Assembly: GCF_055900595.2 (NCBI RefSeq)
Contig: NZ_CM148325.1
Strand: one strand, 5' to 3'
Length of the DNA: 64,000 nt
The position numbers are program-made. Every line of letters starts with the position of its first letter. Within the stretch, counting starts at the first letter, position 1. This document shows positions 36,001 to 39,000 of this stretch, piece after piece.

Positions 36001-39000
36001 TTGTAGTGTTGATTATTTCTGGTAATGAATGCGGAATTAAATCTGGCCGGATTGTATTTTTGCTATATCTATTTTTCAGGAGATTATTATTAAATAGAAA
36101 AATAACAATGGTGATTATCTCCGGTTGAGCTGGAGTCACGTATGCCAGCGAGTGCTTTCTTCCGGGCCTTCCTTCACTTCAGAGAAAGAGCCTATGGAAA
36201 AGAGGCAATCATCAGGCTCTTTTTGAGTCATATGCGCCGATAATCAACTGTCTTGAACGTAAAAATTATGGAGCAACATGATGCTACGATTCATTTCACT
36301 CTTCGTTCTTTCTGAGCATTGCGTTCAGGATGGTCAGCAATTTACGCATACAGTCAACCAGCGCCACTTTTTTGGTTTTTCCGGCTGCTGGCAGATGCAT
36401 GTAAAACGCCTCTTTCACCGGATTAAACCAGGTTACCACAAGCGCTGCCATGTGCAGGGCTGCTCTTGCCTCCGTACGCGCACTGGCGTCGTTCGGCCAG
36501 CAGATATGTGTGGGATAACAGGGATGTTATGTGAACTGAACTGTGTTTTGTTAGCGGGGGATGTTTATTGATGATTCGGGAGTGTTTAAGACCTGATGGC
36601 GTTATGCACCCAAGTTTATTTTATATAAAGATCCAAAAGCAAAAACCCGCCTTGTGGGCGGGTTCTTAAGAATTAGTGGTGCCCGGAATCGGAATGAAAC
36701 TGATTGTATAACAAATTGTTTTATATAGATTATTTTGTATTTGTTGTTTTTGAGGCCACCAATGAGGCCCCCATGTGCAATTCGAATTCTTTTGACGCTA
36801 TAATCCCTCTTTTTTGTGCTTTGCTGTAATCATTTGGTCTGGTTCGATATGCTGAATTGTGGAATCGTACTTAACGCGTTTGTTAGCTGGTCAGAACACT
36901 TAGCGCTGTTTGTCTGAAACTGGAATAGGCTTCTTCCCAGTTAATCTGTGTATTACCAAATACCATCGGTTTAACAAATCGTTGAAAGCGCAATTTGTGT
37001 ACAGGATAATCCCGGAGTGCATCCAGCCCTTTCTTAAGTTCATCAACTGGTGAGCTACAAAATTGTGGGTACTGGTTACCATAGCTGAATACATATCTGA
37101 ACAAAATTTTTCAATACAGGAACATTCACACCTTTTTCCCTGACAATGCAGTAGTTGTCGTAAATGTGACGTACCAGAAACTCATCATCCTGTTGTTCGG
37201 GATTACGAAGATGTGCTGCTGTTCTTCGCATCATGGAGATGAGCTTTTCAGCCTGAGTGGATAAAATGGTGGCACAGGGGAATGCTGTTACAGGTGTACC
37301 TTTACCCGTTAACTCCGTGACAAGGGAATAAATATCTCTGCTTTCCGGATGTTCCAGCAGAGTGCTTTCCATCAACTCCAGCTTAATAAATGGACGAAGA
37401 CAGGGGACTTGTGCAAATGTCTGGGGATAACGTACCGAGATTTCGTTATAACGATACTCATCACGTGTTATACGGGCGTTTTCATTATCCAAGCTGAAAA
37501 TGTCAGAATTATGAATAACATCCGTGATTATTTGCACGATTTCCTTGCGAATTTTTCTTCTCTTGTCTCTGCCATTTTGCATAAAGTTCTCTGTTGGCAC
37601 GAGCTTTATATCAATATCTTCTGACATTCTGTTTAGCGAGATACCTGCTTTTGATAATGCGGTACCTCCTGCAAACACGAGAGTATGTGTTTCTGGTTTT
37701 ATTTCTTTTAATAATCTTAAAAGATCAACCACAAAATAATCTTTTTCGACGATAGCGACAGATTCAATATCCAGTGCATCGGCAACGTCAGGAAATAATG
37801 ATGTTAATTCAGGCATTGATTTTACTTTTCCCTACTATTAACATTCTTTTAAATCGAGAAGGTGTTTTTATCCCCAGAGATACAGGAATTTGTGTGGACT
37901 GACCTTTATTGTAGCATTCCGTTGCTCCTGCCAGACGGTATCTGATATTCAGGCGCTCCAGGGCCTCTGTAATTACTGCAGCAGAGCCCCCAGGCGCTGC
38001 GGGCATGATTTTCCCAGTGATGATGTTACGACGGGCTTTGGTGTAAACACCATAGCCCACTTTCATCAACTTACCTTCGTTTACCAGTGTACGAAGAGCT
38101 CTGCCAACCTGATCATAGCCAGCGATATCCCTGAAATCATCCCGGGTGAACACATAACGTTTTGAACGGTTCAGTCGGGACTGAATACGGTCTTTTGTAG
38201 TCATGTTTCCTCCGAAAAATTTTCACAATGATAGCAAAAATATGACATGTTTAATAGCGGGGCAAGGCCACATTACCTGTCTGCTAATACATTTGGATAG
38301 TGCCTGGCAATTATGTCATTTAGCCTGTCAACCAGTTCTGGTTTCCTGAACGTGATGTGTGCGGAGCCCTTCTTAAAGTATCTGATGCTGAACATCTCAT
38401 CTTCATAGCACGCTTTGCCCTGAACGGAGCGGATGTGATCATCCAGCCGAATGATGATATTTTCCCGGCTGTCGGGGATCGGTTTGCCGCTGAACAGATG
38501 CAGCATTCTTTCCAGGTCAGCGAGTCGATCTGCCTGTTGCCCGGTGATAAGATGCAATCCCCATCGGTCCCATCTCACCAGATTGTTGACGATAATTTTA
38601 TTGCCAAATTTACAGGGGCAATTGGTTTTGTAATTCCAGCTCAGACCTCTGAAGAGGTTGATCACACCTCGCTCAAACACGTCATCCTTATTCTGGTGCA
38701 GTTGTTCAAACGTACTCAGGATATTCGCCTCGCTGATTTCCGGAAAGTTATCGTACTCCAGTGAGCGGTACCATGTATCATGGGCCTGCGCATCCATTAA
38801 TGACAGCATCCCGGAACGTTGCATCAGGTCACGCCAGATTTCGCGATCGAGATTGCGGGTGATGGCTTTCATTGCGGTTTCCGGTTTCTCCATGAGCCTG
38901 CAGCCGCAGCGAAAATCCTGTTTCATGGCCCAGTCCCGGGCGGTTTTACCGCCAATGCTTTCCGTCAGTACCGAGATTTCAGCCAGTTGCCGGATAAGTG

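Follow-up and report, generated by a model that had tools for sequence, protein, structure and literature searches.

In the AbiEi-AbiEii systems of S. agalactiae and L. lactis, a DUF1814 nucleotidyltransferase toxin is encoded in a bicistronic operon with the gene for a winged helix-turn-helix (wHTH) antitoxin upstream. The toxins of characterised relatives add nucleotides to tRNA 3′-CCA ends, halting translation (Dy 2014, PMC3985639; Arrowsmith 2026 preprint), and binding of the antitoxin leads the toxin to auto-phosphorylate a Ser or Thr beside the catalytic DxD (Arrowsmith 2026 preprint). The R220D substitution, downstream of motif IV, abolished the activity of S. agalactiae AbiEii (Arrowsmith 2026 preprint). 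The M. tuberculosis toxins MenT3 (Rv1045/TglT) and MenT4 (Rv2826c) share the fold but are paired with different antitoxins. SanaTA of Shewanella sp. ANA-3, credited to Sberro et al. (2013) in the Arrowsmith 2026 preprint, protects against T7 lacking gene 4.5 (Arrowsmith 2026 preprint).

A module with the same bicistronic plan was found on the minus strand of the window, a stretch of 64,000 nucleotides from contig NZ_CM148325.1 (assembly GCF_055900595.2). It is very probably a decaying SanaTA-type AbiE/DUF1814 toxin-antitoxin system (type IV, or type VII in the recent re-classification), composed of an intact antitoxin and a dead toxin. The two-gene module is a known one, and the RefSeq annotation already labels its toxin gene "frameshifted" (PGAP pseudogene span, 36883-37816). 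The intact antitoxin gene (37809..38204) encodes 131 aa of the DUF6088, or short AbiEi-type winged-helix, family. The toxin ORF (37076..37816) has 246 codons, of which 244 encode native DUF1814/AbiEii nucleotidyltransferase residues and are followed by Leu-Trp-stop, and a 73-aa ORF in a different frame (36883-37104) overlaps its end. The toxin start and the antitoxin stop overlap by 8 nt (ATGCCTGA) on the same strand with the antitoxin gene upstream, and an overlapping or abutting layout was likewise seen in seven related loci. From these relatives, the intact form would be one bicistronic operon that encodes the winged-helix antitoxin (131 aa) together with a nucleotidyltransferase toxin of 315 aa. 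If a phage infection then depleted the antitoxin, the toxin would be released and the infection would abort.

The family assignments of both genes are far beyond chance. The toxin, which contains FAGGTAL...RMSEDIDIK, matched Pfam PF08843 AbiEii with 96.2 bits (cut-off 22.5; E 3.8e-27; profile positions 1-176 of 238) and PADLOC AbiEii PDLC02297 with an E value of 5e-97 (positions 1-237 of 307). The antitoxin scored 35.8 bits against Pfam DUF6088 (PF19570; cut-off 25), a domain that is precomputed on nearly all of its homologues, and matched PADLOC AbiEi PDLC02229 (E 3e-52; 128 of 131 positions), while its score against Pfam AbiEi_4 was 23.0, slightly under the cut-off of 25. No NCBIfam model matched either protein, and phmmer searches with the single sequences against PDB sequences returned chance-level matches only. 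These profile matches bear out the original prediction of two overlapping minus-strand AbiE-type genes, with ORFs at the coordinates given above. The module thus belongs to the AbiE/DUF1814 group, and the toxin in the window is a broken member of it, not a non-member. The antitoxin is without the two-domain build of S. agalactiae AbiEi or Rv2827c, in which the wHTH is joined to a separate C-terminal antitoxicity domain of ~100 aa.

Among characterised systems, the nearest relative of the pair is one of Shewanella sp. ANA-3, taken as NC_008573.1 21935-23283, which is probably SanaTA as judged by the organism, the 136-aa antitoxin and S65. The two have antitoxins of 136 and 131 aa, an overlapping DUF1814 toxin of 313-315 aa, and Ser65 in RMSED(I/V)DIK. 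The ANA-3 toxin is 42% identical to the intact E. coli allele over 315 aa (E 9e-91) and the antitoxins are 44% identical over their full length (E 3e-38). The ANA-3 pair is intact and plasmid-borne, with a type I R-M system downstream of it, whereas the toxin in the window is truncated.

Alignment with intact and other alleles located the lesion at 37085..37086, where 14 bp (ACAGGATATTGA[A/G]C, coding strand) are absent. This deletion shifts the frame, and therefore the toxin ends after 244 native residues plus Leu-Trp. Residues 245-315 (71 residues) are taken out of frame, and what is left of the 3′ part of the gene lies in the +1 frame at 36883..37085 (minus strand), with two bases of the R249 codon, the 66 codons from Y250 to S315, and the ancestral TAA stop. 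When the other-frame ORF was aligned, it matched the ANA-3 toxin at residues 247-312 (E 5e-16), and hhalign against the family profile gave a probability of 99.2% (E 1e-19). When the 14 missing bases were added back, Pfam AbiEii coverage rose from 1-176 to 1-236 of 238. Close homologues of the toxin are 313-321 aa long (315 aa in E24377A), as are the toxins of intact pairs on plasmids of Acinetobacter, Aeromonas, Shewanella, Vibrio and Pseudoalteromonas, and distant representatives (27-47% identity) align through residue ~313. The original prediction had suspected a frameshift because the toxin stops at 37076 while another frame continues, and the profile alignments support it, with a result contrary to the one that would have refuted it: 246 aa fall short of a full-length product, whose missing C-terminus lies in the frame at 36883-37104. 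The homopolymer near 37080-37105 that had been proposed as its cause did not hold up, and slippage in the A5T4 run close by was rejected by the alignment of the alleles. Relative to E24377A, the dN/dS of the now out-of-frame part (0.18) resembles that of the in-frame part (0.15), indicating that the deletion is recent.

What the truncation removes was assessed from an alignment of 93 homologues and a structural model. The residues invariant in the alignment are K25, D26, G50, T52, R63, S65, E66, K191, R216, H217 and D220. The window ORF keeps G50, G51, T52, R63, S65, E66, D67, D69, K191, R197, R198, R216, H217 and D220. The catalytic motifs, as defined by Dy 2014 (PMC3985639), are thus all present, namely I (hGG), II (RxSxDxD), III (K...R) and IV (+xxxD, here R216-H217-x-Y-D220 with H replacing the first D), and each of their residues is either invariant or conserved to at least 90% among the 93 homologues. 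G50/G51, R63, D67 and D69 correspond to G49/G50, R63, D67 and D69 of AbiEii, with the phospho-acceptor at position 65 in both. S65, in RMS65EDIDI, would be the auto-phosphorylated residue here; this predicted phospho-acceptor precedes the first catalytic Asp by two residues, the same position as MenT3 S78, AbiEii T65 and SanaT S65. The AF2 model of the intact toxin had a pLDDT of 96.5 and a pTM of 0.93, with the C-terminal helices confidently folded. A Foldseek search with this intact-allele model matched MenT4 6y56 (E 2e-7, TM 0.63/0.67), and also MenT3/TglT and JHP933; across MenT3 and MenT4 the E values were 2e-7 to 1e-4 and the TM scores 0.5-0.67, at 11-17% sequence identity. Among the sequence searches it took the 93-sequence family profile to reach MenT4, which it matched at motifs I-II (LVFKGGTSL...RFSTDLDF). 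The truncated product loses the end of helix 232-250 and four more helices (residues 255-313) of the conserved C-terminal lobe, and D246, at least 90% conserved among the 93 sequences, falls within the deletion. From these features the truncated product is most likely inactive or unstable, and the module would therefore consist of an intact antitoxin and a dead toxin.

The host is an ExPEC-type E. coli. In it the module occupies the far end of a CP4-44-like genomic island, between DUF4942 and an IS110 remnant/kpsF, and the group-2 capsule (kps) cluster comes directly downstream. The same position is occupied in CFT073 (c3681-c3682; C_RS17460, C_RS17465) by near-identical DNA with the toxin broken at the same site. 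The CFT073 antitoxin differs from that of the window only by M121V, but its 13-bp deletion yields 305 aa, the last 61 of them junk, against 246 aa from the 14-bp deletion here. In Nissle 1917 the flanks are 96-99% identical to the window and capsule region 2 is different. NCBI PGAP flags the toxin gene as "frameshifted" in both strains. The identical 14-bp-deletion junction was found in 456 complete E. coli genomes, the exact 13-bp-deletion junction of CFT073 in 58, the 13-bp deletion with a nearby SNP in ~97 further genomes (an estimate from identity bands), and the W298* nonsense mutation, as in EC958, in 47. Among ~660 capsule-linked copies in 5,426 complete genomes, nearly all have the toxin broken by one of these three lesions. 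The lesion is real, inherited and widespread, and the two other lesions at the locus show that these lineages tolerate, or selection favours, the loss of a full-length toxin. The lesioned alleles differ at 0-4 of 732 nt, too alike to gauge relaxed selection after the lesion. Their antitoxins are identical or differ by M121V, and the antitoxin dN/dS against E24377A is 0.11. The M121V site was ambiguous as to the order of the 13-bp and 14-bp deletions, with recombination or homoplasy needed either way.

The original prediction had left the choice between an inactivated system and a sequencing error; inactivation stood and the error did not. An intact toxin in the source strain, misread in the assembly, is extremely unlikely, because 14 bases are missing rather than one, they do not fall in a homopolymer, and the exact junction recurs in 456 independent complete genomes, which many laboratories sequenced on many platforms. 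Nissle 1917 assemblies do differ by one base (13-bp form in CP007799.1; 14-bp form in CP022686.1 and CP058217.1), so one-base database errors occur at this site, but neither form restores the frame. This reading is effectively refuted, though raw reads over 37060-37110 containing ACAGGATATTGAAC would revive it. Rescue of low-level full-length toxin by programmed ribosomal frameshifting is next to inconceivable. The sequence ~20 nt ahead of the junction contains the slippery-type heptamer A-AAT-TTT, at which a -1 shift in the 13-bp-deletion allele would bring the ribosome back into the C-terminal frame with no stop on the way. In the 14-bp allele of the window, however, the C-terminal frame is +1 and a -1 shift leads into a junk frame; neither a site for a +1 shift nor a stimulatory structure was found, and any rescued product would still be without D246 and its neighbours.

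Two further readings concern what the broken module might still do. Because all four motifs and the phospho-acceptor Ser precede the break, the product may have residual or altered activity, and the 246-aa core could serve with the antitoxin as an attenuated or differently regulated phage-defence or stress module in ExPEC. More than 600 genomes retain the pair with its coupled start intact, and a CFT073 mutant without the pair, there in its 13-bp-deletion form, was reported to have altered susceptibility to several BASEL phages, including Bas 06, 32 and 46 (McGarry et al. 2025, PMC12488582). We nevertheless regard an active core as improbable. The 71 lost residues are conserved, including the near-invariant D246 and the four helices of the fold shared with MenT4, and in S. 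agalactiae AbiEii the R220D substitution past motif IV abolishes activity. Three separate lesions in the toxin gene beside an untouched antitoxin are the usual pattern of toxin decay. The CFT073 mutation also lies just upstream of kps, and a term search of McGarry et al. (2025) found mention of neither complementation of the pair mutant nor a test of kps polarity. The other reading accepts that the toxin is dead and holds that the antitoxin is selected as an orphan, either because it protects against SanaTA-like modules that arrive on plasmids or islands, or because this winged-helix protein regulates local transcription reading towards kps region 1; this is unlikely, though less so than an active core. 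The antitoxin is intact and near-invariant across the alleles examined, its operator-like box and -10-like element are kept, intact homologous modules circulate on plasmids of E. coli and others, and the discussion of McGarry et al. (2025) states that the pair is co-transcribed with the capsule genes. Against this, the lesions are recent, so that an intact antitoxin needs no selection, and a strong terminator-like hairpin separates the pair from kps (36640..36668, minus strand; consensus scan; a 12-pair stem followed by a T run, ~215 nt past the ancestral toxin stop). Taken as one proposal, that the lesioned module is not dead, either through a core that still acts or through an antitoxin and operator kept for a new job in SanaTA immunity or transcription running towards capsule region 1, is improbable. 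If it held, it would explain both the phage phenotypes of the CFT073 deletion and the recurrent loss of only the toxin C-terminus in capsule-linked copies.

The decaying module with an intact antitoxin and a dead toxin thus remains the preferred reading, and its main value is as a correction and a caution. ExPEC surveys count the pair as a defence or toxin-antitoxin system, and the experiments in CFT073 treated it as if it were intact; a term search of McGarry et al. (2025) turned up none of "frameshift", "pseudogene" and "truncat-". Because nearly all capsule-linked copies are broken, the published phenotypes need complemented, non-polar controls. Moreover, defence-system counts for ST131, ST73 and ST69 should list the module as degraded.

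The expression signals of the module were examined in the 68 bp of spacer that precede the antitoxin gene. A Shine-Dalgarno sequence, GGAGG, was read 4 nt ahead of the antitoxin ATG (38209..38213, minus strand). A scan of the spacer for sigma-70 consensus returned no promoter, and a search for inverted repeats there returned none that was convincing; the candidate operator surfaced only through cross-genus comparison. On conservation, a putative promoter and operator span 38228..38260 (minus strand), where the conserved box ATGTCATATTTTTGC (38234-38248) is immediately adjacent to a -10-like TATCAT preceded by TGC (38228-38233), and a degenerate upstream box is present at 38249-38260. In the intact form, as judged from relatives, the antitoxin probably also represses its own operon via the conserved box, which would overlap the promoter. 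The ANA-3 pair has a related upstream box, (A/G)TGCCGTATT. The intact alleles of E24377A and plasmid NZ_CP010123.1, together with the conserved box, provide material for tests of SanaTA-type regulation in the native host genus. In total, the box RTGYCGTATTTNTGC was present upstream of the antitoxin gene in eight loci from six genera, and its core occurred 12 times against 0.52 expected, a count that was reached in none of 5000 shuffles.

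Two overlapping AbiE-like genes were found on the minus strand, in agreement with the original prediction. In the ORF list the antitoxin ORF occupies 37809-38204 (131 codons) and the toxin ORF, also read from the minus-strand sequence, occupies 37076-37816 (246 codons). The antitoxin stop and the toxin start overlap by 8 nt (ATGCCTGA), and FAGGTALSKAGISLNRMSEDIDIK is present in the toxin ORF. The toxin matched Pfam AbiEii PF08843 (E 3.8e-27) and PADLOC AbiEii (E 5e-97). The antitoxin matched Pfam DUF6088 (35.8 bits, over the cut-off) and PADLOC AbiEi (E 3e-52, 128 of 131 model positions), and scored slightly below the cut-off of 25 with Pfam AbiEi_4 (23.0 bits); a search of NCBIfam with both proteins gave no model for either. 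Gene order, overlap and domain content could be read directly, and on these profile scores the family matches of both genes are well beyond chance. The 246-codon toxin ORF is not full length, because its profile match ends at 176/238 (Pfam) and 237/307 (PADLOC). A minus-strand ORF in another frame (36883-37104, 73 codons) runs on past the toxin stop at 37076, and the proposed frameshift of the toxin proved essentially right.

The 1.7-kb region is 100% identical in many complete E. coli genomes, and in Nissle 1917 the span 36883-37816 was already flagged as frameshifted by the NCBI PGAP annotation pipeline. Sampling spread across the 675 matching records brought up alleles 1, 13 or 14 bases longer, and four of the sampled alleles were aligned with the window. 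Strain E24377A, whose allele is intact (315 aa), has 14 bp, ACAGGATATTGA[A/G]C, that are missing from the window, with the junction between bases 37086 and 37085. This junction lies outside the nearby A5T4 run, so that a slip in that run was rejected as the cause and the suspected homopolymer origin was not borne out. The window frame reads ...I-C-I-Q244, followed by Leu-Trp-stop. In silico re-insertion of the 14 bases gave a 315-aa protein whose Pfam match reached 236/238, restoring the C-terminus from the other frame; the intact E24377A toxin covers 306/307 PADLOC model positions. The out-of-frame remnant (36883-37085, minus) aligned with residues 247-312 of a Shewanella toxin (36% identity, E 5e-16) and with a 93-sequence family profile (hhalign probability 99.2%). 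As judged by these alignments, its homology to the family C-terminus is independent of the E. coli alleles. A slippery-type heptamer, A-AAT-TTT, precedes the junction by ~20 nt, at about 37100-37110 (minus). For the 13-bp-deletion allele, which is not that of the window, a -1 shift there would re-enter the C-terminal frame with no stop met.

The distribution of the lesion was measured with junction queries of 80-81 nt against 5,426 complete genomes. The exact 14-bp junction was recovered in 456 genomes (among them the window, most Nissle 1917 assemblies, ABU 83972 and JJ1886), which rules out the sequencing error that the original prediction had left as an alternative and proves that the deletion is inherited. 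The exact 13-bp junction was found in 58 genomes (CFT073 and ATCC 25922 among them); it is likewise out of frame, and its product, 305 aa long, ends in a junk tail. About 50 genomes were undeleted at this site, 47 of which, including EC958 and S2, carry TGG to TAG at codon 298. This allele, with a 297-aa product and no pseudogene flag from PGAP, is a third, independent lesion. In only two settings was the 315-aa gene observed fully intact: on a conjugative IncF plasmid and in the divergent E24377A-type allele (93% DNA identity), which adjoins yghD/gspL with no kps cluster between. Together with the lesion counts, this means that damage affects nearly all copies linked to the capsule genes, and that it arose by a one-base change and at least two independent events. 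The 13-bp and 14-bp deletions have a common left breakpoint (ATTCA|), and the Nissle 1917 assemblies conflict, CP007799.1 having the 13-bp form and CP022686.1 and CP058217.1 the 14-bp form. The antitoxin gene was identical among the strains examined or differed by M121V alone, a site at which a simple 13-to-14 history would need recombination or homoplasy. Relative to E24377A, dN/dS was 0.18 in the now out-of-frame part and 0.15 in the in-frame part (small counts: 7 synonymous, 5 non-synonymous); this resemblance indicates that, set against the divergence of the alleles, the deletion is recent. Unannotated fragments on E. coli plasmids (e.g. NZ_CP142679.1 37461-37643) encode no more than the C-terminal 61 residues of a related AbiEii toxin (56-59% identity), and were read as further toxin remnants.

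Close toxin homologues across Enterobacterales are 313-321 aa long. An exhaustive search of 1.84 billion representatives returned 1,491 relatives, and the alignment of distant ones (27-47% identity, 305-325 aa) reaches residue about 313. In the 93-sequence alignment, K25, D26, G50, T52, R63, S65, E66, K191, R216, H217 and D220 were invariant and D67, D69, E190, R197, R198, Y219 and D246 at least 90% conserved, catalytic and phospho-acceptor residues among them. They correspond to motifs I-IV, which Dy et al. delineated and probed by mutation in AbiEii of S. agalactiae (G49/G50, R63, D67, D69, K173, R180, D192). Of these conserved residues, D246 is the only one not upstream of the break, and falls within the deleted 14 bp. 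In S. agalactiae AbiEii, R220D, downstream of motif IV, abolished NTase activity. The fold was clear: the AlphaFold2 model built from this alignment was confident (pLDDT 96.5, pTM 0.93), and Foldseek against the PDB matched it to the M. tuberculosis toxin MenT4 (6y56, E 2e-7, TM 0.63/0.67), many MenT3/TglT entries and H. pylori JHP933. MenT4 motif I-II was also matched in sequence by the toxin family profile. The modelled C-terminal lobe has helices at 232-250, 255-259, 261-274, 276-289 and 298-313; the window product is predicted to end within the first and to lack the other four, and the codon-298 product would lack the last.

Throughout Enterobacterales the antitoxins of this family are 131 aa long; those of Shewanella have 136 aa. 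The AlphaFold2 model (pLDDT 83) has the topology of a winged helix, after which come a conserved MPAAPGGS loop and a small alpha/beta tail. Foldseek gave weak matches only, to Fur-type winged helices (E 0.04) and, at rank 5, to AbiEi 6y8q (E 0.079, TMq 0.46); topology and matches together establish the winged helix. Relationship to the two-domain AbiEi specifically is suggested mainly by profile matches and gene context. Many public DUF6088 records are named "S-adenosylhomocysteine hydrolase", evidently, since the protein is a winged helix of 131 aa, a propagated annotation error. All DUF6088 antitoxin genes compared (8 loci, 6 genera) are preceded by a box, RTGYCGTATTTNTGC, in most cases present as two direct copies spaced 23-24 bp; relatedness among some of the upstream regions makes these loci less than fully independent. 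Its core occurred 12 times versus 0.52 expected, a count reached in 0 of 5000 shuffles. In the window, cross-locus comparison placed a strong copy at 38234-38248 (minus), abutting a -10-like TGCTATCAT, and a degenerate copy just upstream (region 38228-38260, minus). This arrangement is consistent with autorepression by the winged-helix antitoxin, and the box is a candidate operator for the family.

The closest characterised relative of the pair is probably SanaTA of Shewanella sp. ANA-3, which has a 136-aa short antitoxin and S65 as the SanaT phospho-acceptor (Arrowsmith et al. preprint). On the megaplasmid of ANA-3, a type I R-M system is directly preceded by two overlapping genes, one for a 136-aa DUF6088 protein and one for a 313-aa AbiEii protein, and we infer from the sequences that this pair is SanaTA. 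It shares 44% (antitoxin) and 42% (toxin) full-length identity with the E. coli pair, and S65 lies within RMSEDVDIK. SanaTA protected E. coli against T7 lacking gene 4.5, whose product is reported to block Lon-dependent antitoxin degradation. By analogy with the family, an intact toxin would nucleotidylate the tRNA 3'-CCA end and block translation, the antitoxin would bind it and switch it off by inducing S65 auto-phosphorylation, and loss of the antitoxin upon infection would release it. The window most likely has an expressed antitoxin and a truncated toxin that is inactive or unstable. On Shewanella and Vibrio plasmids, a type I restriction-modification operon that begins with hsdM directly follows an intact DUF6088-AbiEii pair, which is a defence-island arrangement.

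The module and its "frameshifted" annotation were known already. McGarry et al. 2025 (PMC12488582) described the same locus in CFT073 (c3681-c3682); they showed its linkage with group-2 capsule genes across 502 genomes and reported that a gentamicin-cassette replacement mutant had altered susceptibility to some BASEL phages. The CFT073 toxin gene carries the 13-bp deletion and is flagged as frameshifted in RefSeq. A term search of that paper found no "frameshift", "pseudogene" or "truncat-", and neither complementation of the TA mutant nor a polar-effect test. A strong terminator-like hairpin (36640-36668, minus; 12-pair stem and T run) separates the toxin remnant from the IS110 fragment/kpsF, which sits uneasily with the published co-transcription of the pair with capsule genes. 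In another survey, 72% of the ST73 strains and 82% of the ST131 strains carried AbiEii. New here are the exact lesion, the proof of inheritance, the population picture with its three lesions, the probable relationship to SanaTA and the candidate operator; their main value is caution in reading defence-system censuses and CFT073 phenotypes.

A CP4-44-like island (38273-45656, as annotated in Nissle), of which the pair forms the last module, has genes for Ag43, antirestriction, RadC/JAB, DUF987, CbeA/CbtA, DUF5983, DUF957 and DUF4942. On IncF plasmid NZ_CP010123.1 this string of genes recurs next to an integrase, and there the toxin is intact. The window belongs to an ExPEC-type lineage other than Nissle, because its flanks are only 96-99% identical to Nissle. 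Capsule region 2 (14900-26000) is not of Nissle's K5 (kfi) type; it has genes for a CDP-glycerol glycerophosphotransferase, an acyltransferase and glycosyltransferases, and about 40 strains besides one of ST69 O15:H18 match it at 100% identity.
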